Translations under genes and position numbers: made by a program
The notes under the pieces: generated by a model
What the model saw: only the letters and a program-made list of their open reading frames with translations
Databases searched by the model: none
What the model was told of the DNA's origin: nothing
Shown: positions 818-32,000 of the stretch, in pieces
How the letters are laid out: every line of letters starts with the position of its first letter
Position numbering within the stretch: the stretch's first letter is position 1
Origin: Candidatus Saccharimonadota bacterium
GTDB taxonomy: Bacteria; Bacillota_I; Bacilli_A; Mycoplasmatales; Hepatoplasmataceae
Assembly: GCA_027925225.1 (NCBI GenBank)
Contig: AP027131.1
Coordinates: 240,001-272,000 of the forward strand
Length of the DNA: 32,000 nucleotides
Direction of reading: 5' to 3'

Positions 818-1993
818 ATGTTTGGAAAATTTAATGTTGTACCTTATTCTAGAAATCCAATTCAAATTAAACAAGATTTAGAAAATAAATGGTTAGATTT
901 AAATCCAAAATATCAGAGAGGATATGTTTGATCGAAAAGATTTCAAAGAGAATTAATTATTAGTATTTTTTCTGGATATCCTATTGGAACGGTAGTAGTA
1001 AGAGGACAAAGCAAAACAAGAAATCTTGAATTAGTTGATGGTCAACAAAGAATAAAAACAATTATAAGATTTATGGATGATGAATTAACATTAAATTCAA
1101 CCCATTCTGTAAAGGCCAAAGAAATTTTGAATTTAAGAGGAGAAAATTATGATAAATATCAAAAAAATATTTATAAATTTTCTAATTTAACTTTAAGAGA
1201 TCAATCTGATTTTAAAAATTCTTTTTTAATTTCTGGTTTTCAGATTCAATATGATAATGATGAAGAAGTAAAAAATTATTTTGATAAAATACAAACTCAA
1301 GAAAAACTGTTAGCAGGAGAATTAATAAATAATTTACCAAATAATATTTTTGATGAAATATTTGAGGAAAATGAAAATAATATTGATAATTTTTGTAAAT
1401 TTATTGGATTTAATAATAATAGAAAAAATTTTCAAAAAGCTTTATTTAATTCAATTGGATTTAATCTTGAATATATTGAATTAGGAATTATTGACGACAA
1501 ATTAATTAAATTTGTTAATGATTTATCTTCTAAAGAAATGAGAAAAAATTTAAAATATGATGAAGTACTTTTTAAAGAAAAAATAAAGGAATCATTATTT
1601 CAAATATTAAAACTTAATAAAAATATAGATATTAATAAAAAAGCAAAACAAAGATTTTTAAAATTATTGTTTTTATTAATTAATTATTTAAATATGAATG
1701 ATTCTATTAATTTTGAAAGACTTGCACTTATTAACAGAAATTTATCAGAATATAATACAAAATATGCAAGAAAAAATGAAAATAAATTTATTGAAAATTT
1801 AATTACAGATGGAATAATTAGTAATCAGAATGATTTTCATTTATTTGAAGATTTATATGATTTATTTTATAAAACACAAAAAAATGATAATGAAGTCAAA
1901 GCTTTATTAAAATACTGATCAAATGAAATAAAACAAAATTCATATTTAGAATCATTAAATGATTTTAATGCAATACAAAAGGATTTGAATTAA
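818..1993 (+). CDS. DUF262 (ParB/GmrSD N-terminal-like) domain protein, 391 aa, with no recognisable DUF1524/HNH C-terminal domain
   Basis: ATG at 818 sits 6 nt after aggag (807-811). The N-terminus reads NPKYQRGYVWSKRFQRELIISIFSGYPIGTVVV...LELVDGQQRIKTIIRF, the DUF262 QR..VW / DGQQR signature. The gene joins ORF 1073-1918 through TGA at 938-940 and 1916-1918 and ends at TAA 1991-1993. Confidence 0.7.
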
Positions 1994-9698: not shown

Positions 9699-11273
9699 AT
9701 GAAAGAAAAAATATCTTTATTAAAAATAAAACTTGGTTTATCTTTTTCTGAAAAAGAAAAAAATATTTATGTAAGTAAAGTAGATTTTGAAAATCTAATA
9801 GAAAATTTTAAGGATAAGGAGTGAATTAAAAATTATTTTAAAAATTATTTTTTTTATAAAAAAACTTTAAAATACTCTTTTCCAACAAGCTTTTTCTTTA
9901 TCTGAAAAGCAAATGGAAGAAAAACAAATAAAATTTACTTTAAATTTAGAAAAGATGAAATAAAAGAAAGAATTTATAGCGGTGAATTTAATTCTGAAAA
10001 AGAGGGAGATATTTTTGAAGAAAATTTTAAATTAATAAAAACTTATGTTGAATCTCTTTCAAAATTAGTTAATCATTTTTTTGATTTAGTTGATTTTTCA
10101 AAAGAAGAGTGTGATGTTAGATTAAACATTTTAGATACTTCTTTATCTTTAGAAAAATATGTAGAAAGTATTTTGAATTTTTATAAAGATATTAAGAAAA
10201 ATAAGCTTTTTCAAAAAATTTATGTTGTTAATACAAAAATTTTAAATAGCATAATAAAAAATTCTAAAATAGTTTCAAAAGATGAATCATTTATTATAGA
10301 TTCAAAAATTAATAATTCAAATTCAAATACAAATAAAATTGAAATTATTTCTTCTAAATTAAAAGATATAAGAAATATAAGAGATTTGTCCGAAGGGAAA
10401 CAAGTAATTAAAAATTATATTATTAAATCATCATTTATTGAAAATTATTGTTTTTCAAGCGAAAAATTTAATCCTAAAATTAATTTTGTAAAAGCTTCTA
10501 AATTAAAATCAGTGGAAAATTCAATAATAGAAGATTCTTATATTAGTTTTACAAAAATAGATACAGAAAAAACAGAAATATCAAAATCAAAATTAATAGG
10601 AAATAGAATTGATTTTAAAATAAAAAACAAAGTACAAATTATTAAAAATTATGAAATTAATTTTTCTTCTATAACAAATATAAGTTTTGTAGGAGATGAA
10701 AATAATGATGAAAAATATTTTGTTAGAAAATCAAAATTATTTTCATTAAATGAATCAATTTTTGAAAATACAAATGCTAAATATTCTTTAGTTGAAACAA
10801 ATAATTTATTTAATATAAAAAATTCAAATATTTTAAGAAGTAGAAGTAATTGAATTTTAAAAGATGAATCACAAATAATAAAAGATTATTTTATTATTAA
10901 TTCAAATGTTAAAAATGTTTCTTTTTCTTCTGATGAGTTTGAAAACATAAAAGAAATGTCTTCTTCGCTTGAAACAGCAAATAATTTAATTGATAAATCA
11001 CTTGGTAAAATTAGTCCTGATATTATAAATAAAAGTTTAAATTTAATTGGAGATGAAATTAAATCTACTGAAAATGTCTTAAAAAATTCTTCTATCAAAT
11101 CTTTTAATTTATCTAATATAGATAATTCTTATATAAAGAGAGTTAAATTTGAAGTAAATAAACTTAAAATATCTGGATCTAAATTAATAAATATTAAAGG
11201 TAATTGATATTCTCCTAACGGAGTTCAAAATATAATAAATTATTCATTAAGTAATTCTACAATTAAAACTTAA
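9699..11273 (+). CDS. Hypothetical cytoplasmic repeat-rich protein, 524 aa, with a degenerate short-period Ile/Ser/Asn repeat pattern (beta-solenoid-like)
   Basis: ATG 9699 follows aagga. Track ORFs 10173-10853 and 10956-11207 share its frame and are joined via TGA codons. It ends at TAA 11271-11273. No signal peptide or TM segment is visible. Confidence 0.65.
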
Positions 11274-11292: not shown

Positions 11293-11586
11293 TTAGTTAT
11301 TTAAACTTTTTTGAAATAAATATGTTTCAATTTTTGAAAGAGTTATTTTAATTTCTATCATTTCTTTGTTATGAATCATTATGGTTTGATTTAAGATTTT
11401 AATATCTTGTTTAACTTCTTTTAAATTATTTTCAATATTATCTATTTTAATTTCAAAGAAATCTATTTTATTTTCGACGGAATTTAGTCTATTTTCAACA
11501 GAATTTAGTCTATTTTCAACAGAATTTAATCTATTATCAATGCTTATAAGTTTTGCGCTATTTCAAAAATGAAAGTTTATTTTCAT
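11293..11586 (-). CDS. Small coiled-coil protein, 97 aa, with three tandem RLNSVEN heptads (paralog of 4730-4981)
   Basis: ATG 11584-11586, one in-frame TGA, TAA 11293-11295. Product: MKINFHFWNSAKLISIDNRLNSVENRLNSVENRLNSVENKIDFFEIKIDNIENNLKEVKQDIKILNQ... Confidence 0.5.
11471..11540. repeat. 21-bp tandem repeat, three full units plus a partial fourth, inside the small coiled-coil CDS
   Basis: ttttcgacggaatttagtcta / ttttcaacagaatttagtcta / ttttcaacagaatttaatcta / ttatcaatgc... Confidence 0.9.
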
Positions 11587-15221: not shown

Positions 15222-16511
15222 TTAAAATACTCTTTTATAAATATTATCTACTTCTCTTAAATAATATTTATAATCAAAAAAATTATTTATTTCATCCTTA
15301 TTAAATAATTTATTTATTTCATTATTTTCAAGTATTAAATTTTTAAAATCTTTATTTTCTTTCATTGATTTAAGAGCTAAATTTTGTATTAAGTCATATG
15401 CTTTTTCTCTTGAATATTCTTTTTTTATTAAATTGCTTAATATTCTTTGAGAAAATACTAATCCTTTTGTAATTCATATATTTTCAAACATTTTTTTTTC
15501 ATTTACTATTAATGTTTTTAATGTATAAGAATATCTTTTTAATGCATATTGAATAAGTGTTGTTGCATCAGGAATTATTACTCTTTCTACTGAAGAATGA
15601 GAAATATCTCTTTCATTTCAAAGAGGAATATTTTCATAAGCAGAAAAAACATAACCTCTTAATATTCTAGAAATTCCTGTAATATTTTCTGAAGTTATTG
15701 GATTTTTTTTATGAGGCATTGAAGAAGAACCTTTTTGTCCGGTGCTAAAATATTCTTGTACTTCACCTATTTCGGTACGTTGAAGTGTTCTTATTTCAAT
15801 TGCAATTTTTTCTAATGAATTTCCTATCATAGCAATGCTATGAATATAATTTGCATAAACATCACGTTGGATTATCTGTGTTGATATTTTTGCTGAATTT
15901 ATTTTTAAATTTGAGCAAACCATATCTTGTATATTACTTTTAATGTTTGCAAAATTTCCCATTGAACCAGAGATTTTTCCTGTTTCTATTTCTTCTCTTG
16001 CATTTTTAAATCTTTTAATGTTTCTAGACATTTCGTCATATCAAAGTAATCATTTTAAACCAAAAGATGTAGGCTCTCCGTGAATTCCATGTGTTCTACC
16101 AATTATTGGTGTATTTTTGTATTTATTTGCATTTTCTTTTAAAACTTCTAAAAAAATTAATAATTCCTTTTCTATTTCATTATTTGCTTCTTTAATTAAT
16201 AAAGCATTTGCTGTATCTATTACATCACTTGCCGTTAATTTATAGTGAATTCATTTTTTTTCATCACCTAATTTTTTAGATATTGATCTAGTAAAAGCCA
16301 CTACATCATGTTTTGTTATTTTTTCTATTTCTTCTATTTCTTTTAAATTAATTTTTGCATTTTCTTTTAAAATTTCATAGTCCTTAATTGGAATTACTTT
16401 TATTTTCACAAAAGAATGAATAACTTCTAATTCAACATCTAAGAATTTTTGAAATTTATTTTCTTGAGATCATATTTTTTGCATAACCTCATTAGAATAT
16501 CTTTTTATCAT
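15222..16511 (-). CDS. purB: Adenylosuccinate lyase, 429 aa
   Basis: Fumarate-lyase signature [11 protein letters not shown]. Track ORF 15618-16031 extends through TGA to ATG 16509-16511 and TAA 15222-15224. Confidence 0.95.
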
Positions 16512-16547
16512 ATAGAAATATTATAAGTTATTTTAAATATTAATTTA

Positions 16548-18029
16548 TTATTCAATATCATTAACAATAACAATAAAACTTGAATTTTCATAATCGGGTC
16601 CTATTGGATAATAATATTTATATCCATTTTCTGAATCATAAGTTAAATCTCTAGGAAAAGAGAAATTAAAATCTCCAAAAATCATTTCTTGTGCATAATA
16701 TTCTTCACTATCATATATTCAATCATCTTCATCAGGAAGAACTAAATAATAGGTATAATTCAATGTTCGATTTGTAGTTGCTTTTATATCTGAATTTTGA
16801 TAATAAAGTCCTGGTGTATTGAGAAGTGTAGAATTAATTTCGGAAACTTCTTGTGATTGATAATTTATTTCTTTTTTATCTCATTCATTATGTCCCCCAT
16901 AAGGATCATCAACATTAACTAATATATTTCAATTAAATCCTATTTTTATATTTTTTGTAAACTCCATAAATGATTTAGTATTTTCAACATTTATTTTTTT
17001 CAAATTTATATTAAAAATTAAATAATTATCGCCATAAGCACTTTCTTTGGGATTTACATCAATGCTTTGAACATTTTTTTCATGTATTGATGGTGTAAAA
17101 TAATATGTTTTTTCATCAAATAAATATGAAAAACTAGTTGTTTTATAGTCATTATTTAAAAACATAATTACTGAATCATTTACATCTTTATATCCATAAT
17201 TAATTGGCATTTCAACTTCATTATCAGAAAATTTAAATTCTTGTGTGTATAAACCATCTCCTTTTGTGCTTGTTATTTTACTTGCGCTACTTATTGGAAT
17301 TAATTTATATTTTTCTTTAATTAAAAGTTTTTCATTGTTTGTATCATAAAGATCATAATACTCTGCATAATGATAAAGAGAATAAGAAGAATAATCATAA
17401 AAATTAAAACCATCTCCATCAGAATATGTAATTTCAATTTTATTATTTATTCCTTTTTTTGCATTTATAATTTTTGGATAACTTTGATCTCCATTATCAT
17501 AAATCGTTCGACTTGTTTTTATTTTATAATCTTGTTCATATGTTGTATTAATAATTGTATTATCAATATTGTTTATTGATAATGTTGGATTTAAAATATA
17601 ATAAATATTATCACTTTTTAAATATTCAGGATATATTGAATAATTATAATAAACAGGTAATTCAACATAAAAATAAGTTTCTAGATTTAAGTTTTTAATT
17701 TTAAATAAATTTTTATTTATATAAAAAGAAACATCATGATAACTATCATCATTTTCAGATTTAATTTGATAACTAAATGTTATTGAATTAATTTGAGAGA
17801 TATCTCCATTATAAATTCCTGTTGTAATTAAAATTGTCATATCATCTTCAGCATATTCTCTACCCATATAATCTAATGTTTCATGATTAAAATATGAAGA
17901 AATAATTTGAAAATTTTCATCTTCACTAATATTTTTATTTTTAAAAGAATTATTTATAAAAGGTAATCCTATTATCAAAAATATTGGTAAAAAGATAAAA
18001 GATAGTATTTTTTTATTTATTTTTTGCAT
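16548..18029 (-). CDS. Cassette gene A, copy 1: signal-anchored Asn/Tyr-rich secreted or surface protein, 493 aa, no recognised family
   Basis: Track ORF 16929-18029 continues through TGA codons (16929, 16881, 16719) to TAA 16548-16550. I checked every codon from 16548 to 16929. Hydrophobic N-terminus MQKINKKILSFIFLPIFLIIGLPF, with no lipobox Cys. Confidence 0.75.
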
Positions 18030-18103
18030 AGCTATTTCCTTTTTTATTATTTCTTAAATTAAAGACAACATCATTATAAAATACTTTTTTTATACTTAAT
18101 ATA

Positions 18104-20148
18104 TTTAATTAAAAAAAACACAAATGTAGATATATAAAATAGTGAAATAATTAAAGATAAAATTACTATTAATTTTTTATTTTTTGTTTTTATCGATATA
18201 TTCTCATAATTATTTGGATAAATATAATCATTAAAATATGAATAAGATCAATCATATTTATAATCATTATTTAATTCATTTATTGCATAAATATTAAAAT
18301 TACTATATTTAGTATTATTTTCTAAATTTGTTAAAGTATATTCATATTGATTTTCATAAATTATAGAATTACTAATTAAATTTTCTTCTTTTAAACTATC
18401 ATATTCATTATTATTTGAGTCTTTATAAGTAATTCTTAAGTTATTGGCTTGAATTTTTGAAACATCAGAATATGTAATTTCAAATGTAATTGAATTATTT
18501 TTTATTTTCTTAATTTTTATGTTTTCTATATTTACATTTGAAAAATCAGTTACATAATTTTTTTTATTTAAAAAATATTTTTCATTATATTTAAAATTTA
18601 ATTTACTTAATGAAAAATTCATATTTATATATATATTATTTTCCTCAAAAGTTGGTATTTCATAAATTGCTTCTATATTATTTTTATAATTTATAAAATT
18701 TATTTTAGAATAATATAATTTTTTTGAATATTTTTTAATTTTATTATTTTGATTGTCATATAATGAATAATTAAAATTAATTTCCTTTATTAAATTTAAA
18801 TTCCCATTTTTAGTATTATTTCAAATTTTATTAGAATGATAAAAAACATCTAAATAATATTTGTTTCCTTTTTTTGTAATTTTTGAATCAATTACATCAA
18901 TATTTAATTTATTAAAATTTTTTTCAAAATTTATTTCTTTAAAAAAATACTTATAACCAGTGGTACTTAAATAATTTTTATTATCTTTATAATTTTTAAC
19001 AAAAGAATTGTTTAAATAATCATATTCAAAATATCCACTATTTATAAAAACGAAAGATGATAAGTCATTTGTATTATTTTTTTCAAAATTTATTTCATAT
19101 TTATAAATATCCAAATTTTCCATATAAATTGGATTTGTTAAAACTTTATATTCTTCTTTTCCATTATTTTTATAAGACAAAACTAAATTATTAGCTAATT
19201 GATAATTTATTTCATCATTATATTTTATAAAGATGTAAAAAGAATTATCATAATATTCATTTTCTTCATAATAAACATTTTCAATTTGAGGGGGGTGGAT
19301 TGGGGTAATTATTTTGTAATTATCAACTCACTCATTTAAAAATATTTCTTCATTATTATAAAAAAAAGAAAAATTATAATAAATCATTCCTTCTTCCTTT
19401 GAAATATTATTTATATAAATTGTTTCATTATATCAATTACTATTTCCGTATTTGTAATAGTTATCATTATATTCAAAATTTAATTGGTAATTATTTTCAT
19501 TTTTATCATTATTATAGGATCTGTAATCTGCATATATTTTTAAATTATTTAAAAATTCTTTAATTGTTATTTTTTTAGGAATTAAAACATTTAAGTTAAT
19601 TTCAGCTATATTATTATTTAAAAAAATAAAATCATTTATTATAATTTTTACATTATTTAAATTAAAGTTTTCTTCATAATTTAGACTAAAACTATTAATA
19701 CATTTTTGTATTGGTTTTAATAAATAAGTTGAAAAATATCCATTTTCATAGTAAATATTTACTTCAAATGAAAAATCAGGATTTAATTTATATAAATTTT
19801 CTAAATTATTTATTTTAATATTATTTATATTTAGTTTAATAATAAAAAAATGATTATGAAGGTATTTGTTTACATAATCATTTTTTGTTACATTGTTAAT
19901 TAATAATATTTTATTTTTGCCATTTGAATAATTAATATTATTTAATTTTTCTATTATATGTATTGAATCATTATCCGATATAAGAGAATATTCAATATTT
20001 ATATTTCAACTTTCAATATTTAAAATAGAATTAATTGTATTTTATTTCTATTTTGGTTATTAACAGCATAACCCACAAAAGAAATACTTGAAAGCGTAAT
20101 CAAAAATATTAAAGAAATAAAAAGAAAAGGAGTAAAAAATTTTCTCAT
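18104..20148 (-). pseudogene. Cassette gene B, copy 1: disrupted paralog of 22753-25104
   Basis: A 42-codon leader ORF (20020-20148, MRKFFTPFLFISLIFLITLSSISFVGYAVNNQNRNKIQLILF*) is in a different frame from the 645-codon body (18104-20041). The body has no upstream ATG. About 85 codons present in copy 2 are missing. The C-terminus is truncated after an A9 run (18110-18118). Confidence 0.7.
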
Positions 20149-20264
20149 TGTTACTTAACACCACCCAAATTTGTATATTTTTTTGTTATTGTTTTATATT
20201 TAATTAAATCTCTAAGTACATTATTTATAGCAAAATTATTTTATTAAAATATTAAAAATTTAAA

Positions 20265-20924
20265 TTAATCAATAAGTAATGATATTTCTTCTTTTCATCT
20301 TTTAAAGTCATCTTTTCCATAAGGCGTTTCTAATGCTTTTGGTAAGTTTATTAATTTTGGGTGAAATACAATTTTCTTTAAAGCTTCAAGTCCTATCTCT
20401 CCTTTTCCAATATTTGCATGTCTATCTTTGTTAGATCCTAATTCATTTTTTGAGTCATTTATATGCATTCCTTTTAAATAATGGAGTCCTATTATTTTGT
20501 CAAATTCATTTAAAACTTCATCAATATTTCTAATATCATATCCTCCATCTCAAATATGACAAGTATCCATTACTACGCCAATTCTTTTTTTGTTTTCCGC
20601 TAAATCTATTATTTCTCTTATTTCATTGAAATTTTTTCCAATATAATTTTCTTTTTTCATCATTGTTTCAATACAAAGTATTACATTACTATTTTTTGTT
20701 TTTTCAATTATTTCATTTGTCCCAAAAGCGCATCTTTTAATTCCCTCTTCTCTTTTTCTAAAAGAAACTGGGTGAAAATTAAAATATTTAAGTCCCATTT
20801 TTTCCATTAATTTCACATCTTCTGTATAAGAATAAACAGTAGCATTAAAAATTTTTAAGTCTTCATCATTATTTGCTTTTTTAATTAATAAAGCATTTGC
20901 TGTATCTATTACATCACTTGCCAT
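20265..20924 (-). pseudogene. Chimeric purB(codons ~93-110)::nfo(codons ~82-284) open reading frame; 5'-truncated endonuclease IV copy
   Basis: Product [33 protein letters not shown]...[12 protein letters not shown]...LLID*. The first 15-17 residues match purB ([20 protein letters not shown]) and the rest matches nfo. It lacks the N-terminal third of Nfo, including the VHAP His. Confidence 0.8.
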
Positions 20925-21188
20925 TAATTTATAATGAATTCATTTTTTTCATCACCTAATTTTTTTGATATTAATCTAGTAAAGGCTACTACATCATGTT
21001 TTGTTATTTTTTCTATTTCTTTTAAATTAATTTTCGCATTTTTTTTAAAATTTCATAGTCCTCAATTAGAATTACTTTTAATTTAACAAAAGAATTAATA
21101 ACTTCTAATTCAACATCTAAGAATTTTTGAAATTTATTTTCTTGAGATCATATTTTTTGCATAACCAAATTAGAATATCTTTTATCAT
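20877..21188 (-). pseudogene. purB 5' fragment (codons 1 to ~110), decayed
   Basis: Aligns to 16188-16511 with 1-nt homopolymer indels (one just after the start codon) and a 9-nt deletion of one ctatttctt repeat unit. The reading frame is broken. Confidence 0.85.
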
Positions 21189-21230
21189 ATAAAAATATTA
21201 TAAGTTACTTTAATATTAATTTAATTATGG

Positions 21231-22700
21231 TTAATTTATTATTGGTATTATTAGATTATCATTTTCATAGTCTGGAGAAAATAAATAATAATATTCATAT
21301 CCAGATTTTGAATCATAATTTAGCATTGATGGAAAAAATAAGCAAAAATCACTAAAAATCATTTTATTTGCATATGTTTGTTCATCTTTATATATTCAAT
21401 AATTTTCATCAGGAAGAACTAAATAATATGTGTAATGTAACATATTATCACTTGTATTTATTATGTCTGAGTTTTGATAATAAAGTCCTGGCATATTGAG
21501 AAGAGAAGAATTTATTTCAGATACTTCTTGTGCTTCGTAAGTTACACTTTTGCTATCTCATTCATTATGTATGCCATAAGAATCTTCTACATTTAATAAA
21601 ATATTTCAATTAAATCCTATTTTAATATGCTTTGTAAATTCTTTATATGATGAATTATTATTTGCATCAATTCTATTTAAATAAATATCAAGTTTAAAAT
21701 AATTAGGATTACCAATTTTTTTATTACTATTTAATGTTATATTTGAAATATTTTTTTCATAAACAATAGGAGGATGAAACACAGTATTAGAAGATGAATT
21801 AACTAATGCATAACTAATTGATTGATAATTTTCATTTAAAATCAAGAATAAAGAATTGTTAACAGATTTGTAACTGTAATTTAAAGGCGGATCAATTTCA
21901 TTTTCAGATAATTTAAATTCTTGTACATATAAACCATCAAATAATTTATCTTCTATTTTTTTTGCTTTGCTTATTGGAGTTAATTTAGTAAAATTTTTTA
22001 ATAATAAATTTTCATTATTTGTATCATAAAGATCATAAAATTCTTCATAATGATAAATTGAAAAAGATGAATAATCAAAAAAATTAAAATTATCTCCGTC
22101 AGAAAAAAGGACTAACATTTTTCCTGCATTTTCTACTTGAACACCTTCAATCTTTGGATAACTTTGATCTCCATTATCATAAACTGTTTCACCTGGTATT
22201 ATTTCATAATCTTGTTCATAGGTTGTACTAACAATTGTTCCATCAATATTATTTATTAATAATGTTGGATTTAAAATATAGTAATATGTTCCACTTTCTA
22301 AATAATTAAAATATGTTGAATAATTATAATAAATGGGCAATTCAACATAAAAAAAAATATTTGAAGACATGGATTTAATTTTAAAGGAATTTTTATCTAC
22401 ATTAAAAGAGACATTATGATATTCGGTATCATTTTCAGACTTAATTTGATAATCAAAAGTTATTGAATTAATTTGAGAAACATCTCCACTATATATACCT
22501 TTTGTTATTAATGAAGTCATAAATATATCTGAATCTACTTTGCCATCGTAAAGCAGTTCATCAATATTAAAATAAGAAGATATAATTTTAAAATCATTAT
22601 TTTCATTAATATTATTTTTCTTAAAATTAATATTTTTAAAAGGTAAATTAATTATTATTAAAAATAATGGCAAAAAAAGAATTATGATTTTTTTTTTCAT
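21231..22700 (-). CDS. Cassette gene A, copy 2: signal-anchored Asn/Tyr-rich secreted or surface protein, 489 aa
   Basis: Track ORF 21606-22700 continues through TGA to TAA 21231-21233. N-terminus MKKKIIILFLPLFLIIINLPF. Conserved blocks shared with A1 include DNGDQSYPKI, YDLYDTNNE, KIGFNWNIL, HNEWD, PGLYYQNSDI and YTYYLVLPDE. Confidence 0.75.
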
Positions 22701-22752
22701 TTTTTTTATATTTATTTCCTTTTTTATATTTATTATTTAAAATTCAAAATTA

Positions 22753-25104
22753 TTATAAAATACTTTTTCTGTATTTAATATACTTAATTAAAAAATATAT
22801 AAATGTAAATATATATATAAGTAAAATTGATAAAGATAAAACAATTATTAACATTTTATTTTTTGTTTTTATTGAAACATTTTTATAATCTTGTGGATAG
22901 ATAGAATTATAAAAATATGAAAAATTTCAATCATATTTATAATCACTGCTTAATTCATCTGATATATAAATATTAAAATCTTCATATCTAGTATTATTTT
23001 TTAAATTAATTAAAGTATATTCATATTGATTTTCATAAATTTTTGAATTACTTATTAAATTTTTTTCTATTAAAGTGTTATATTCATTGTTATTTGAATC
23101 TTTATATGTAATTTTTAAATTATTAGCTTGAATTTTTGAAATATCAGAATATGTTATTTCAAATGTAATAGAATCATTTTTTATTTTTTCAATTTTTATA
23201 TTATTTATATTCGAACTATAAAAACTAGTTAAATATATTTTTTTAGATAAAAAGTATATTTCATCATATTTTTCATTTGATTTATTTAATGAAAAATTCA
23301 TATTTACATATATATTATTTTCTTGAAAAGTTGGTATTTCATAAAGAACTTCTATATTATTTTTATAATTTATAAAATTTATTTCAGAATAATATAATAT
23401 TTCTGAATATTTTTTAAATTTATTATTTTCATTATTGTATAAAGAATAATTAAAATTAATTTTTTTAATTAAATTTAAATTTCCATTTTTTGTATTATTT
23501 CAAATTTTATTAGAGTGATAAAAAGAATCTAAATAATATTTATTTCCTTTTTTTATAATTTTTGAATCAACAACATAAATGTTTAATTTATTTGATGAAA
23601 CTTCTTTTAATTGCAAGGTTTTAAAAATATATTTATAACCAGTAGTGTTTACATAATTATTATTATCATAATTTTTAGTAAAAGAATTATTTAAAAAATC
23701 ATATTCAAAATATCCGCTATTTATAAAAACAAAAGAAGATAGCTCGCCAATCTCATCAAATGTTATTTCATATTTATAAATATCAAAACTTTTTATATAA
23801 AATGGATTTTTTAAAAAAATATATTCACTTTTATCATTATCTTTATAGTATAAAACAAGATCATTTGCTAATTGATAGTTTATATTTTTATCATATTTTA
23901 TATATATATAAAAAGAATTTGCATAATATTCATTTTCCTTATAATAAATACTTTTTATATTTGGAGGATATATGGGTGTTATTATTTTATAGTTATCAAC
24001 TCACTCATTTATAAAAATTTCATTAGAATTATAAAAAAAGGAAAAATTATAATAAATTATTCCTTCTTCTTTTGAAAAATTATTTATATAAATAGTTGCA
24101 TTATATCAATTGCTATTTCCATATTTATAATAATCATTATTGTATTTAAAATTTAATTTATAATTATTAACATTTTTATTATTATCATAAGATTTGTAAT
24201 CTGCATAAATTTTTAAATTACTTAAAAATTCTTCAATTTTTATTTTTTTAGGAAGCAAAATATTTAAATTAATTTCAATAATATTATTATTCTGAAAAAA
24301 AAAATTATTTATTATAATTTTTGGATTATTTAAATAAAAATTATTTTCATAGCTTAGATTAAAACTATTAATACTTTTTTCAAAAGATAAAAAATAAAAA
24401 GAAATATTTTTTTCTATATTTGTTTGAATGGAAATATTTAAAAAACTATCTTCATCTAAATAATAATGTTGTGAAATTTTATTGGCCTTAATATTGTTTA
24501 ATTTGTATTTAAATATAAAAAAATGATTATTAATATAAGAATTTAAATAATTGTTATTTGTATTAATATCAATTTTTATAATTTCAATATTTTTTATTTT
24601 ATTTATATTTTCTGGGGTAATAATTCTATGTATTTTAATTTTATTTTTATTATTTTCTTTAGAAATTAAACAATAATTAATATTAATTAAAAAATCAATA
24701 ATTCCTTCTTTTTTTATTAAGTTTAAATCTTGATTTAAATAAACAAACATATAAGATGTTAGTGAATATATATCTTCAAATTTTTCATTAGATTCATAAG
24801 AAGCATAGTAATTTCAAAGAACTAAATCTGGGTTATCATTTAATCATTTTTTAATTTGAGAATAATTCATATTCTCAACACCCTTATTTATTATATTTTC
24901 TTTATTTTCTTTAATTTTTTCTATCTGAATTTTATGGTTAAATATAAAGGCATTTTTTACCTGTTCTCCCATATCAATATTTTGTTCTGTATCAACATTA
25001 TTTCTATTTTGATTATTAACAACATAACCTATAAAAGGAATACTTGAAAATGTAATAAAAAATATTAAAGAAATAAAAAGAAAAGGAGTAAAAAATTTTC
25101 TCAT
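22753..25104 (-). CDS. Cassette gene B, copy 2 (intact): 783-aa surface protein with an N-terminal signal/anchor helix and a C-terminal TM anchor; the membrane-proximal domain looks FN3/Ig-like
   Basis: Track ORFs 24844-25104, 24106-24750 and 22927-23301 are one frame. I checked every codon in 23302-24105, 24751-24843 and 22753-22926 and found only TGA. N-terminus MRKFFTPFLFISLIFFITFSSIPFIGY. C-terminus MLIIVLSLSILLYYIFTFIYFLIKYIKYRKSIL*. Confidence 0.75.
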
Positions 25105-25222
25105 TGTTACTTAACACCACCCAAATTTGTATATTTTTTTTGTTATTGTTTTATATTTAATTAAATCTCTAAGTACATTATTTATAGCAAAATTATTTTA
25201 TTAAAATATTAAAAAATTTAAA

Positions 25223-26077
25223 TTAATCAATAAGTAGTGATATTTCTTCTTTTCATCTTTTAAAGTCATCTTTTCCATAAGGTGTTTCTAATGCTTTTGG
25301 TAAGTTTATTAATTTTGGATGAAATACAATTTTCTTTAAAGCTTCAAGTCCTATCTCTCCTTTTCCAATATTTGCATGTCTATCTTTGTTAGATCCTAAT
25401 TCATTTTTTGAGTCATTTATATGCATTCCTTTTAAATAATGGAGTCCTATTATTTTGTCAAATTCATTTAAAACTTCATCAATATTTCTAATATCATATC
25501 CTCCATCTCAAATATGACAAGTATCCATTACTACGCCAATTCTTTTTTTATTTTCCACTAAATCTATTATTTCTCTTATTTCATTGAAATTTTTTCCAAT
25601 ATAATTTCCTTTTTTCATCATTGTTTCAATACAAAGTATTACATTACTATTTTTTGTTTTTTCAATTATTTTATTTATCCCAAAAGCACATCTTTTAATT
25701 CCTTCTTCTCTTTTTCTAAAAGAGCCTGGATGAAAATTAAAATATTTAAGACCCATTTTTTCCATTAATTTCACATCTTCTGTATAAGAATAAACAGTAG
25801 CATTAAAAATTTTTAAGTCTTCATCATTATTTGCCAAATTTCCAATTAAAGGTGCATGAACAATAATATTTTTAATATTAAAATTTATTTTTTTTGCAAA
25901 TTCCTTTGCTTCTTTTAGATTATCTTCATCTAAAATTAATGTTTTTTTATAAGCTCTTGAATTTGAAATATACATCGCACCAGATGTTGCTTCTATTTCA
26001 TTTAAGTCATGTAAAGTACCTAATAATTGTGTTTTTTGTTTAAAGGATACATGAGCACCAATTAAAGGTTTTTTCAT
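25223..26077 (-). CDS. nfo: Endonuclease IV (AP endonuclease), 284 aa
   Basis: [41 protein letters not shown] and [26 protein letters not shown] motifs. Joined through TGA at 25508. TAA at 25223-25225. Confidence 0.9.
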
Positions 26078-29055: not shown

Positions 29056-29790
29056 ATGGATATATCATTAGGCACAATATTTTTATCAGAAATGTTGGGA
29101 ACATTTTTCTTGATTTTAATAGGTTGTGGTGTTAACGCAAGTGTTAATCTTAAAAAAACCCATTCAAGTAATTCGGGTTGAATTGTAATTTGTTTTGGTT
29201 GAGCAATGGGAGTATTTGCCGGAGCATCTGTTGCTTTTGCTTCTGGGGGACATTTAAATCCTGCTGTTACTTTAGCAATGTGAGTAGAACAAACAATTGA
29301 TGTTGGTCAAGCATTTATGTACTTTTTAGCAGAGCTTGTTGGAGCATTTCTTGGAGCTTTACTTGTTGCATTTTTATTTTGAGGACATTTTAAAGCAACA
29401 GAGGAAAAAGAAAAAGTTGCAGGAACTTTTTATACATCTCCTGCAATTAGAAATTGACCTCGTAATTTAGCAACTGAATTTTTTGCTACATCAGTTCTTA
29501 TTTTACCAATATTAGTTTCTGGTAATACTGATATAACACCAGGCTTTACAATGTATGGTCCATTATTTGCTGCATTGTTAGTACTTGGAATTGGATTAAC
29601 TTTAGGTGGACTTACTGGATATGCAATAAATCCAGCAAGAGATTTAATGCCTAGATTAGTACATACTGTTGTTGCGCTTCCTAATAAAGGAGGAAGTAAT
29701 TGAGATTATGCATGAGTTCCAACTCTAGGGCCATTAATGGGTTCACTTTTTGCAGTTGGAATGTATGAATTAATTTTAGTTACACTTTAA
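29056..29790 (+). CDS. glpF: Glycerol uptake facilitator (aquaglyceroporin), 244 aa
   Basis: Two NPA boxes (HLNPAVT and INPARD) and six hydrophobic segments. Several in-frame TGA explain its absence from the ORF track. Confidence 0.9.
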
Positions 29791-29808
29791 TTAAGGAAAG
29801 AAGAAGGA

Positions 29809-31305
29809 ATGAAAAAAAAATACATATTATCATTAGACTCTGGGACAACATCTACAAGAGCAGTAATTATTGATGAAAAAACAAATGTTGTTTCGATAGG
29901 TCAAAATGAATTTGCTCAATATTTTCCAAATCCTGGATGAGTTGAACATGATGCAAATGAGATTTATGCAAATCAAATTTCTGTTGTAATTCAAGCAATT
30001 CAGAAAAAGGAAATTGATATTAAAGATATTAAGGGAATTGGAATTACAAATCAAAGAGAAACAGTTTTAATTTGAGATAAAAAAACTGGAATTCCTGTTT
30101 ATCATGCAATTGTTTGACAAGATAAAAGAACTGCAGATTATTGTGAAAAATTATCTAAAGATGAAAAAATATTAAAAATGGTTAAAGAAAAAACAGGCTT
30201 AGTTTTAGATCCCTATTTTTCAGGAACCAAAATTAAATGACTTTTAGATAATGTAAAAGGTTTAAGAGAAAGAGCAAGAAGAGGTGAAGTTTTTGCTGGG
30301 ACAATTGATACTTGATTAGTTTGAAAATTAACAAAGGGAAATTCTTTTTATACTGATTATACAAATGCTTCAAGAACTTTACTTTTTAATATTATTGATT
30401 TAAAGTGAGATGATGAATTATTAAAACTTTTTGATATTCCAAAGGAAATTTTACCTGAAGTAAAAAATTCTGCTGATAATTATGGAATAACAGAAGTTGA
30501 TGCATTTAAAGGAATTCCAATTTTATCAGTAATTGGAGATCAACAATCTTCACTTTTTGGACACAGGTCAAAAATAGGAGAAATGAAAGCAACTTATGGA
30601 ACTGGGGCTTTCTTGATGTTAAATACTGGAGAAAAAGTTGTTTATTCAAAGAGTGGACTACTTACAACAATAGCATTAGGTTTAAATGGGAAAATTACAT
30701 ATGCATTAGAAGGATCGATTTATATAGCCGGGAATGCTTTAAAATGAATTAAAGATGAACTTCATCTTATTCAAGAATATGAACAAATTGATTATTATTT
30801 AAAAGATGAATTTGATACAAAAGGAGTAAGTGTTGTTCCTTACTTTGTTGGAGTTGGATCTCCATATTGGAATACAAAAGCAAGAGGTATTATTACTGGT
30901 ATTACAAGAGGAGTGAACAGAGGAGATATTATTAGAGCCACTGCTGTTTCTATACCTTTACAAACTTATGATATTTTTAGAGCTTTTGAAAAAGATTATA
31001 ATAAAAAAATATTAAAAATGTCAATAGATGGAGGAGTATCTAATTCAATCAATTTAATGCAATTACAAGCAAATATTTTAAATGTAAAATTATATAATCC
31101 AAAATCTAGTGAAACTACAGCATTGGGTGCTGCATTTCTTGCTGGTCTTAAAGCTAAAATTTGAGATAATCAAGCACATTTGGATAAAATAATTACTTAT
31201 GAAAAAATATATGAACCAAAATTTGATGAAAAATTAAATGAAAAAATTATTGAAAATTGAAATTCTTCAGTTGAATTAGCACTAAAATGAAATAAAAATA
31301 ATTAA
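29809..31305 (+). CDS. glpK: Glycerol kinase, 498 aa
   Basis: [46 protein letters not shown] and [13 protein letters not shown] motifs. An aaggaaagaagaagga RBS region precedes ATG 29809. TAA at 31303-31305. Confidence 0.95.
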
Positions 31306-31316
31306 AGGATTACTAT

Positions 31317-32000
31317 ATGAATAATAAAAATAATGCAAAAATATATGACATTTTAATAATAGGTGGAGGAATTATAGGAATAAGTATTGCTAAAGAATTC
31401 ATCGATAATAAAAAAAGTGTTTTTTTAGTTGAAAAAGACCCCAAAATATTACAAGAAACTTCTTCTCATAACAGTGGAGTAATTCATGGTGGTTTTGATG
31501 CGACTCCTGGAACATTAAAAGCAAAATTTAATGTTGAAGGCCGCCATCTTTATGAAAAATTATATTTTAAAAAAGAAACATCTTTTTTATGACAAAATTC
31601 TGATTCTTATATTTTGGCTTTTGATAAAGAAGAAGAAGAGGAATTAGAAAAACTTTATAATCAAGGAATTAAAAATGGCCTTAAAGCAAAAGAAATGGCA
31701 ATAATTTCTAGAGAAGATATTTTTAAAGTTAATCCTTATATAAATAAAGATGTTAAAAAAGCATTAGTTTGTTATACATCAAAATCAATTAATCCTCAAG
31801 AATTTGGGAATTTTTTATTTCTAAAAGCAAAAGAAAAAGGATTAGAATATAGTTTAAATTTTAAAGTTAATGAAATTTTTAAAAAAAATGATTATTGAAT
31901 TGTTAAATCTGAAGATGGAACAAAAATTAAAGCAAAATTCATTGTAAATGCTTCTGGAGTTTGAGCGGAAGAAATTGCGAAACTTGTTGAAAAAAATCCA
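31317..32000 (+). CDS. glpO: FAD-dependent glycerol-3-phosphate oxidase/dehydrogenase, 5' part (continues beyond the window)
   Basis: N-terminal dinucleotide fold YDILIIGGGIIGISIAKEF and SSHNSGVIHGGFDA. Track ORFs 31317-31592 and 31614-31898 are in the same frame, joined via TGA. Confidence 0.8.

Follow-up and report, generated by a model that had tools for sequence, protein, structure and literature searches.

Results

Two copies of a B–A gene pair lie between nfo and purB

The window, the whole 32,000-nt stretch of DNA that was analyzed, comes from 'Candidatus Hepatoplasma vulgare' Av-JP (genetic code 4, 21% GC). Ca. H. vulgare is a gut symbiont of pill bugs with a tiny genome (662 kb). On the minus strand the genes follow the order ileS, nfo, B2, A2, the purB-5'::nfo-3' joint, B1, A1, purB, and purA. 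The first-pass annotation had read this order on the plus strand; its layout stands, with the correction that all of the genes lie on the minus strand and are read in genetic code 4. The other ORFs of the window are housekeeping genes or encode a GmrSD_N protein (Pfam and NCBIfam scans). The features of the locus are as follows.

15222..16511, minus strand: intact purB, adenylosuccinate lyase, 429 aa (Pfam Lyase_1 and ADSL_C)
16177..16187, plus strand: parental microhomology site in purB (11-mer match; encodes A-N-N-E)
16188..20876, minus strand: duplication unit 1, 4689 nt (nfo-3' fragment, intergenic DNA, B1, A1, purB 5' part; collinear alignment)
16548..18029, minus strand: A1 (HPAVJP_2390), 493 aa (ORF)
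18074..20041, minus strand: main open frame of B1, 656 codons (annotated as the 437-aa HPAVJP_2400 from 19387)
20020..20148, minus strand: signal-peptide ORF of B1, 42 codons (split from the remaining B1 by a single frameshift)
20265..20865, minus strand: nfo-3' fragment copy, nfo codons 85-284 and stop (alignment; frame open, decaying)
20265..20924, minus strand: chimeric ORF HPAVJP_2410, 219 aa (18 purB-derived residues, then 201 nfo residues)
20866..20876, plus strand: novel joint with 11-nt microhomology (purB ...IKKANN fused in frame to nfo DEDLKIF...)
20877..21183, minus strand: purB-5' fragment copy, pseudogene, purB codons 1 to ~108 (alignment, tblastn)
20877..25834, minus strand: duplication unit 2, 4958 nt (nfo 3' part, nfo–B intergenic DNA, B2, A2, purB-5' fragment; collinear alignment)
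21231..22700, minus strand: A2 (HPAVJP_2430), 489 aa (N-terminal hydrophobic segment; predicted beta-rich)
22753..25104, minus strand: B2 (HPAVJP_2440), 783 aa, intact (N-terminal and C-terminal hydrophobic anchors)
25223..26077, minus strand: intact nfo, endonuclease IV, 284 aa (Pfam AP_endonuc_2, E=1e-46)
25824..25834, plus strand: parental microhomology site in nfo (coding strand GCAAATAATGA; encodes A-N-N-D)

Both purB and nfo remain intact at the outer edges of the duplication, where the first 335 nt of purB (16177-16511) form part of unit 1 and the 3' part of nfo (25223-25834) forms part of unit 2; the duplicated segment spans nfo codon 82 to purB codon 108. The intact nfo product matches deoxyribonuclease IV of Ca. 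H. vulgare (protein P0006) at 100%. Among the matches listed in a purB search of genome contigs there were only relatives at ≤56% identity, none of them Hepatoplasma, and exact-protein look-ups with the window ORFs, A1, and A3 (see below) returned nothing on record. An Rfam scan of the window gave zero matches, a promoter scan was uninformative (140 matches versus 135 expected at 21% GC), and a terminator scan gave a single terminator-like site, located on the wrong strand.

Neither A nor B has any Pfam or NCBIfam match, and their AlphaFold models (pLDDT 45 for A and 36 for B) were too poor for fold searching. B2 retains the full-length architecture of a 789-aa B-like protein of the closest relative examined. 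The main frame of B1 can be aligned to B2 from about B2 residue 121 onward and has no equivalent for most of B2 residues 36-120. A third A paralogue, A3 (HPAVJP_1560), lies elsewhere in the genome, and A1, A2, and the dispersed A3 are equidistant (57-58%); a search for a third B found none. A-family searches recovered only H. vulgare proteins and a single remote Logan match. A1 contains no cysteine, while A2 and B2 contain one each, at about residues 456 and 145, respectively, which is far from the N terminus, so there is no lipobox. The window holds no recombinase. We conclude that B–A is a lineage-specific, fast-evolving two-gene membrane-protein module that had previously gone unnoticed.

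In the closest relative examined, the backbone is the same and nfo and purB are separated by 1.1 kb of unrelated ORFs; its locus (L081) reads ileS-nfo-[235 aa]-[118 aa]-purB-purA-obg, without A or B. A single B-like/A-like pair is found in this relative at a different locus (def...rsmD), and its products are 27-29% identical to A and B, compared to 62-77% for housekeeping proteins. These comparisons suggest that the nfo–purB slot is variable and that B–A is a mobile, fast-evolving module. Metagenome scans with the 38-nt joint sequence and with the A family found nothing, and neither a donor allele nor an independent assembly of the locus turned up in the protein look-ups and metagenome scans.

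A single non-parental junction connects the two units at an 11-nt microhomology

We found exactly three copies of the 11-mer TCATTATTTGC in the window, starting at 16177, 20866, and 25824 of the plus strand (chance expectation, 0.09). The sequence changes over from nfo to purB, in frame, at 20866: the 60 nt to the left agree at 100% with the 60 nt that precede 25824 in nfo, and 57 of the 60 nt to the right of 20876 match those right of 16187 in purB. Outside the 11-mer, the parental sites in purB and nfo are mutually unrelated. Present at both parental breakpoints, the 11-mer is kept once at the joint, where the distal end of the segment is joined to its proximal start, and this purB-5'::nfo-3' junction is the sole non-parental one. 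Because 18 of the ~1.1 million position pairs between purB and nfo have ≥11-nt identity, the microhomology is uninformative as to the pathway used.

A self-comparison of the two units had been proposed in the first-pass annotation; global alignment of 16177-20876 with 20866-25834 was collinear across the full length. Start-to-start spacing of the units is 4677-4689 nt up to ~19900 and 4956-4958 nt thereafter, a shift due to indels in gene B, which add up to ~280 nt in the 5' part of the gene. The units contain near-identical direct repeats of 790 nt (~98%) and 335 nt (~95%) and differ overall by ~22%. Base composition is alike, setting neither unit apart. Pfam and NCBIfam scans of the region and of the window ORFs revealed no IS element, transposase, integrase, site-specific recombinase, or long terminal repeat, and no long inverted repeats were found at the units. 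Thus, the head-to-tail duplication with one purB-5'::nfo-3' junction, the 11-mer confined to the joint and both parental sites, and the lack of an IS element, integrase, or long terminal repeat, all of which the first-pass annotation had claimed, are confirmed, and the structure of the junction supports its reading as the signature of illegitimate recombination at microhomology. We are highly confident that the head-to-tail duplication and its microhomology joint are genuine.

The purB and nfo fragments at the joint carry the marks of decay

By tblastn, nfo residues 82-284 were located at 20876-20268 and purB residues 3-120 at 21183-20847. The nfo fragment matches TIGR00587 nfo over model positions 73-276 of 279, and the 11-mer covers nfo codons 82-84 plus bases 1 and 2 of codon 85. 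It carries 14 substitutions; all five of the resulting amino-acid changes are derived in the fragment copy, and two of them, G118V and G157E, hit invariant positions. Lesions in the purB fragment comprise ~15 substitutions, three –1 deletions, and one 9-nt slippage deletion, and the intergenic DNA between A and purB that lies upstream of this fragment remains conserved as far as the stop codon of A2. The joint block (~1.1 kb) has 29 substitutions of its own. The start Met of HPAVJP_2410 arose from a Thr-to-Met change. Given the derived nfo changes, two at invariant sites, and the frameshifts in the purB fragment, the joint fragments are, on the sequence, decaying pseudogenes. In both the joint block and B1, several of the indels are found within or beside A-runs; homopolymer-associated frameshifts are located at about 20020-20041 in B1 and at 21179, 21042, and 20942 in the purB fragment.

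The flanks of the joint are younger than the A and B cargo

The collinearity of the units implied by the first-pass annotation is accompanied not by uniform similarity but by identities that range from 57 to 100% per 100-nt block. Identity to the parents is 94-100% (pS 0.08-0.10) for the two fragments, purB-5' and nfo-3', for the intergenic DNA, and for the signal peptide of B, whereas the two copies of the coding regions for mature A and mature B share 57-91% (pS 0.35-0.40). High identity starts at the A stop codon and stops at about B codon 35; the diverged part is mature A/B alone. By gene, the values were pS 0.405 and dS 0.58 for A1/A2, pS 0.354 and dS 0.48 for B1/B2, and pS 0.079 and 0.103 for the nfo-3' and purB-5' copies, respectively. 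Measured by codon identity at conserved residues, A has reached 74% of synonymous saturation, B 62%, and the nfo fragment 13%. The joint flanks are ~7-10 times younger than the A/B cargo at synonymous sites. The two units are therefore not of the uniform age that a single event would give, which argues against a single unequal exchange within one genome, one of two routes offered in the first-pass annotation. The other, Campbell-type insertion of a circle, yields the same end structure and would fit only with a circle derived from another strain.

Immediately adjoining the joint, the nfo side is free of differences over 72 nt, and the purB side has a single one in its first 46 nt. Background divergence is similar on both sides (15 substitutions in 335 nt for purB and 11 in 202 nt for nfo), and a search for an older patch in the ~1.1 kb of flank found none and no edge effect. 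Within the nfo fragment the distribution is patchy, with 11 substitutions in 202 nt beside none in 231 nt (P for both = 0.002), and B contains a conversion-like run of 44 codons without a synonymous difference (P=0.0097); interior pS, taken over stretches of 60 codons, ranges between 0.18 and 0.61. Of the two features by which concerted evolution would be recognized, non-random identity tracts are present (in the nfo fragment and in B, at the P values just given) and older divergence at the edges of homology is absent. We conclude that the joint block is young (~4.5-5.5% from its parents on both sides, with later 0% patches), that both A/B cargos are old and most of the way to synonymous saturation, and that this locus is clearly subject to gene conversion. 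As a recent conversion donor, A3 was rejected on account of its equidistance from A1 and A2.

Two lines of argument were dropped. The nine synonymous and five nonsynonymous nfo differences had been considered as proof of two functional alleles; strong transition bias and one neutral lineage predict a ratio near that observed, and the flanks contain too few synonymous and nonsynonymous differences to establish that each of their copies was formerly a functional allele. Polarizing changes by A/T versus G/C direction was abandoned as well, both directions being equally frequent at compositional equilibrium.

Discussion

RecA-independent illegitimate recombination at short homologies yields tandem (join-point) duplications in Salmonella and E. 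coli. The locus resembles these in its direct head-to-tail units, its single novel join at a short sequence common to the parental sites, the preservation of the outer parental genes, the hybrid gene at the join, and the lack of a mobile element. In contrast to laboratory or recent natural join-point duplications, in which the units are identical, the cargo here is 57-91% identical and the join-point flanks 94-100%; nor is this a transient amplification, for it is fixed in the assembled genome of a 662-kb symbiont. Concerted evolution between tandem paralogues is familiar from tuf, from rRNA copies, and from the conserved 5' regions of mycoplasma variable surface-protein genes. Patchy near-identity tracts between otherwise diverged repeats, and a conserved promoter/signal-peptide region ahead of a divergent mature protein, are shared with this locus, although the conserved tracts here are mostly fragments of neighboring housekeeping genes. 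A and B also differ from the mycoplasma variable surface families in having no lipobox, no adjacent site-specific recombinase, and no simple-sequence phase-variation tract; the combination of a lipobox Cys with a recombinase or repeat-tract switch that marks vsp/vlp/vsa/vpma-type systems is absent from them. Homology-facilitated illegitimate recombination (HFIR), which takes place when foreign DNA is taken up, typically uses microhomologies of 3-10 bp and has been described for the transformable species Acinetobacter baylyi, Streptococcus pneumoniae, and Pseudomonas stutzeri (PMC6382021). One homologous anchor and one microhomology join would give the present structure in one step and would account for differing cargo between similar anchors; HFIR usually replaces or deletes recipient DNA, whereas here there is a duplication.

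Because the flanks are young, the cargo is old, the nfo fragment is patchy, and B contains a conversion-like tract, at least one process beyond a single unequal exchange is needed. This extra process is either the capture of a pre-diverged cassette or the concerted evolution of the flanks by gene conversion. Our best explanation, which we hold tentatively and at somewhat less than an even chance for the statement as a whole, duplication included, is that an already-diverged second B–A cassette was captured through one homologous and one microhomology crossover. Two B–A cassettes would have diverged before the joint formed, and the incoming DNA would have come from another strain with a different allele at the hypervariable nfo-[B-A]-purB slot. 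Homologous recombination, in nfo or purB, would have joined one end, and the other would have been sealed in frame at the 11-nt microhomology (GCAAATAATGA), as in HFIR, with an outcome equivalent to Campbell insertion of a foreign circle. Such an 'allele capture' would place two differing B–A versions side by side and leave a dead purB'-'nfo chimera between the two copies of the module. Later, gene conversion would have patched part of B and the nfo fragment in short tracts, both fragments at the joint would have decayed, and B1 would have gained its frameshift. The map, with one novel joint and seamless outer edges, is compatible with HFIR, and intragenomic unequal exchange gives the same map. 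Of note, the 11-nt microhomology is slightly above the 3-10 bp typical of HFIR, which counts against capture. In the genome paper, recA, competence, and recombination go unmentioned (PMC10928387).

Somewhat less probable in our judgment, and still a serious contender, is an old intragenomic tandem duplication, formed by microhomology-mediated unequal exchange at about the time of the A1/A2 split, the flanks of which were kept alike by gene conversion. Mature A and B would then have diverged as fast-evolving surface proteins, possibly under selection for diversity, while RecA-type conversion from the functional nfo and purB kept the fragments, the intergenic DNA, and the B signal peptide near-identical. 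The gene conversion visible at the locus makes such homogenization mechanistically plausible: conversion-like patchiness is seen directly in the nfo fragment, and the 44-codon run in B and the variable interior pS point the same way. No second strain is necessary, and the equidistance of A1, A2, and A3 is compatible with an old family expansion. Against this, independent conversions from two donors, nfo and purB, must have left an equal background of 4.5-5.5% and must have reached the very edge of homology, for neither an edge effect nor an old patch is seen. Moreover, repeats that recombine enough to stay homogenized should often delete a unit, so that long persistence needs selection for both units, yet B1 is frameshifted.

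We consider improbable a multi-step intragenomic history, in which a recent microhomology duplication acted on an older B2-A2-B1-A1 array or on an ectopic paralogue, and deletions or ectopic conversion then removed or replaced the interior copies. A3 attests to a further A paralogue elsewhere in the genome, and the drop in identity at about B codon 35 coincides with the ~280-nt gap in B1 and could mark a deletion endpoint; this history requires at least three events, two of them non-contiguous deletions, A3 is as far from A1 and A2 as these are from each other and hence no recent conversion donor, and the search for a third B found none.

An assembly artefact, whether from wrongly joining the haplotypes of two strains or from spurious expansion during ONT/Flye metagenome assembly, is very improbable: depth was only ~15x ONT and 38x Illumina, the sample held a second, 20-fold more abundant Hepatoplasma species, rRNA/tRNA regions were patched by hand (PMC10928387), the proximity of indels to A-runs means that some frameshifts could be uncorrected ONT errors, and no independent assembly of the locus turned up in the look-ups and metagenome scans, but the ~22% difference between units rules out a collapsed or expanded repeat, the purB::nfo junction needs reads that contain it (read N50 13.8 kb versus a 1.1-kb joint block; PMC10928387), the joint falls exactly at an in-frame microhomology, and the substitutions, slippage deletion, and changes at invariant Nfo positions in the joint block are expected of a decaying pseudogene rather than of a second strain's functional allele. 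Contamination of one unit from the co-resident Ca. H. crinochetorum was rejected because that species shares only ~77% ANI (and ~47% AAI) with Ca. H. vulgare (PMC10928387), against 94-100% identity between the unit flanks, and because A-family matches are limited to H. vulgare and the one remote Logan match.

Returning to capture of a diverged cassette, a further idea, which we regard as unlikely though worth stating, is that the two captured B–A versions are serotype-like and that the 790-nt and 335-nt repeats could act as a reversible recombination switch. If so, deletion of either unit via the repeats would restore an intact single-cassette locus, and this would be a recombinase-free route to surface-protein variation in a mollicute.

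As an event, the rearrangement is of an ordinary, known kind. For the annotation, it means that HPAVJP_2410 is a dead purB'-'nfo chimera and not a hypothetical protein, and that HPAVJP_2400 is the 3' two-thirds of a frameshifted B gene. The locus offers a clean natural case for dating a duplication joint separately from its cargo, and it indicates that illegitimate and then homologous recombination are still active in a 662-kb genome. The B–A module is a candidate host-interaction factor in isopod-associated Hepatoplasma, and capture of the second cassette, if true, would be direct evidence for inter-strain DNA exchange among these uncultured symbionts.

The joint is an in-frame purB-nfo fusion at an 11-nt microhomology

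The window has a GC content of 21%, and reading it in genetic code 4 (TGA = Trp) doubles its total ORF length. The source genome is the complete, 662-kb metagenome-assembled genome of 'Candidatus Hepatoplasma vulgare' Av-JP (AP027131.1), a mollicute hosted by the pill bug Armadillidium vulgare; the genome paper makes no mention of purB, nfo, or the duplication (PMC10928387). Between 12.4 and 28.8 kb the minus strand carries every gene, listed here in the direction of transcription.

28773-26086, minus strand, ileS
26077-25223, minus strand, nfo
25104-22753, minus strand, B2 (HPAVJP_2440), cargo gene of unit 2
22700-21231, minus strand, A2 (HPAVJP_2430), cargo gene of unit 2
21183-20877, minus strand, purB-5' fragment
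20876-20866, 11-mer joint between the two fragments
20865-20265, minus strand, nfo-3' fragment
20148-18074, minus strand, B1 (HPAVJP_2400, split), cargo gene of unit 1
18029-16548, minus strand, A1 (HPAVJP_2390), cargo gene of unit 1
16511-15222, minus strand, purB
15195-13906, minus strand, purA

The first-pass annotation had described a head-to-tail duplication with a purB-5'::nfo-3' joint at an 11-nt microhomology, and we find this description to be correct for the following reasons. The 11-mer TCATTATTTGC occurs at only three sites in the window (16177, 20866, and 25824; chance expectation 0.09). The left flank of the joint is identical to nfo at 60 of 60 positions and the right flank to purB at 57 of 60, and comparison of the two units with each other gives a collinear alignment from end to end. 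Read on the coding strand, the microhomology is GCA AAT AAT GA, and both genes have it in the same frame; the fusion (purB ...LLIKKANN / DEDLKIF... nfo) is therefore in frame, and the chimeric ORF is annotated as HPAVJP_2410. Position pairs of purB and nfo that share at least 11 nt number only 18 among ~1.1 million. The joint itself clearly arose by illegitimate recombination at a microhomology.

The cargo genes are older than the fragments that flank them

Per 100 nt, the units are 94-97% identical in the purB fragment and 93-100% identical from the nfo fragment through the nfo-B intergenic DNA to ~codon 35 of B. The blocks of A (57-85%) and of B (56-91%) form a second, lower class. The boundaries are sharp: identity is high from the A stop codon onward and as far as ~codon 35 of B, past the signal peptide. 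The Nei-Gojobori values were A1/A2 pS 0.405 and pN 0.257, B1/B2 pS 0.354 and pN 0.136, nfo-3' copies pS 0.079 and pN 0.010, and purB-5' copies pS 0.103 and pN 0.036. With a GC3 of only 6-11%, synonymous sites saturate early, so we scored how often conserved residues share a codon relative to what codon usage predicts. On this scale A is 74%, B 62%, and the nfo fragment 13% of the way to synonymous saturation, a 7-10-fold difference in age between cargo and nfo fragment.

The nfo fragment is a decaying pseudogene: residues 1-81 of the enzyme are missing from it, it carries 14 substitutions, and comparison with 10 orthologues shows each of its five amino-acid changes to be derived, among them G118V within the invariant H-P-G-S motif and G157E at a further invariant position. 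The purB fragment (~15 substitutions, three single-base deletions, two of them inside A-runs, and a 9-nt slippage deletion) is, as assembled, not translatable from its own ATG. A1, A2, and B2 are intact. In B1, one frameshift leaves a 42-codon signal-peptide ORF overlapping a 656-codon open frame that aligns to B2 from ~residue 121. The site (20015-20050, minus strand) is a ~20-nt frame overlap with short A and T runs (AAATAAAATACAATTAATTCTATTTTAAA), and the frameshift may reflect true, recent inactivation, a site prone to slippage, or a nanopore homopolymer error left uncorrected; since the frame is still open, any inactivation must be recent, or else the frameshift is such an error.

Capture of a diverged cassette is slightly preferred over conversion of an old duplication

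The first-pass annotation had proposed illegitimate recombination. The microhomology joint bears this out, but a single unequal exchange within one genome is insufficient because it leaves the two ages within one unit unexplained. We place the capture of an already-diverged cassette slightly above the alternative, an old duplication in which the functional nfo and purB genes repeatedly converted the flanks. The incoming DNA would derive from another strain with a different B-A allele; one of its ends would have recombined homologously and the other at the microhomology, much as in homology-facilitated illegitimate recombination (HFIR), which is documented at microhomologies of 3-10 bp (PMC6382021). 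Such a capture would have the same outcome as insertion of a foreign circle.

The locus does undergo gene conversion: in the nfo fragment, a 202-nt stretch with 11 substitutions adjoins 231 nt with 0 (P=0.002), and B contains a tract of 44 codons without synonymous change (P=0.0097). Three observations nevertheless tip the balance slightly toward capture. Background divergence is alike on the two sides of the joint (~4.5% and ~5.4%), the 1.1 kb of flank holds no patch of greater age, and divergence does not rise toward the joint (0 differences within 72 nt to one side and 1 within 46 nt to the other), the very place where conversion tracts would be expected to give out. Under the old-duplication reading, flanking repeats that recombined so often should also often have deleted one unit.

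AP027131.1 was assembled from ONT reads (N50 13.8 kb, ~15x) and Illumina reads (38x), from a sample in which another Hepatoplasma species predominated, with manual patching away from this locus; metagenome scans with the A family and with the 38-nt joint sequence found no independent sequence of the locus. That mis-assembly created the tandem arrangement is very unlikely, because the units are ~22% different and the joint block bears mutations of its own.

B-A is a fast-evolving pair in a variable slot

No Pfam or NCBIfam domain was found in A or B. A has a single, N-terminal hydrophobic segment, B2 has hydrophobic anchors at both termini, and the AlphaFold models of A and B are beta-rich and of low confidence. 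H. vulgare has three A genes (A1, A2, and the dispersed A3), every pair 57-58% identical. A profile search of 1.84 billion proteins returned only one homologue outside H. vulgare, on contig 1358 of the Logan assembly SRR24015491 of the closest available relative. There, a single gene pair (L085:7642-11485) encodes a B-like protein (789 aa) and, immediately after it, an A-like protein (494 aa), the stop codon of the first gene overlapping the start codon of the second. The pair has def on one side and rsmD-coaD-gmk on the other and is not at the same locus as in H. vulgare. The B-like protein aligns to B2 over its full length (29% identity, E=9e-36), and the A-like protein shares 27% identity with A1 and with A2, whereas housekeeping proteins of the two organisms are 62-77% identical. 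These comparisons show B-A to be a conserved module of two genes whose evolution far outpaces that of housekeeping genes.

The relative's backbone (ileS-nfo-[235 aa]-[118 aa]-purB-purA-obg-deoC-...-hisS) agrees with the window outside the nfo-purB slot. Its slot (L081:4260-5310, 1.1 kb) holds two unrelated small ORFs, of 235 aa and 118 aa, the latter with apparent hydrophobic stretches, and no gene fragments; it is for these unrelated ORFs that we regard the slot as a hotspot for lineage-specific genes. Further relatives arrange nfo and purB otherwise. The contents of the slot vary, and the duplication is confined to the H. vulgare lineage. In a more distant mollicute (GCA_040777445.1), a TraG-type P-loop protein and large unannotated ORFs (L083:15487-18108) lie a few kb from nfo-obg, suggesting that an integrative conjugative element lies close to the corresponding region.

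Other features of the window

818-1993, plus strand, 391-aa protein with a GmrSD_N (DUF262) domain, the N-terminal domain of a restriction endonuclease; its gene may serve defence in this 662-kb genome
3783-4697, plus strand, 304-aa ORF without a Pfam domain
9699-11273, plus strand, 524-aa ORF without a Pfam domain, rich in Asn, Ser, Lys, and Ile and internally repetitive in appearance
11293-11586, minus strand, 97-aa ORF with the heptad NRLNSVE four times in tandem, encoded in a 21-nt x 5.5 DNA repeat (11426-11540); weak coiled-coil-type Pfam matches (XhlA, DUF16), all under gathering thresholds
29056-32000, plus strand, downstream of the locus, putative glpF-like facilitator, glpK-like kinase, and start of a glycerol-3-phosphate oxidase/dehydrogenase-like gene, likely a glycerol-utilisation cluster

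Significance of the duplication

The duplication is real, was accurately described, and has useful consequences for annotation. The class of rearrangement is ordinary; the instructive twist is a young joint with old cargo.
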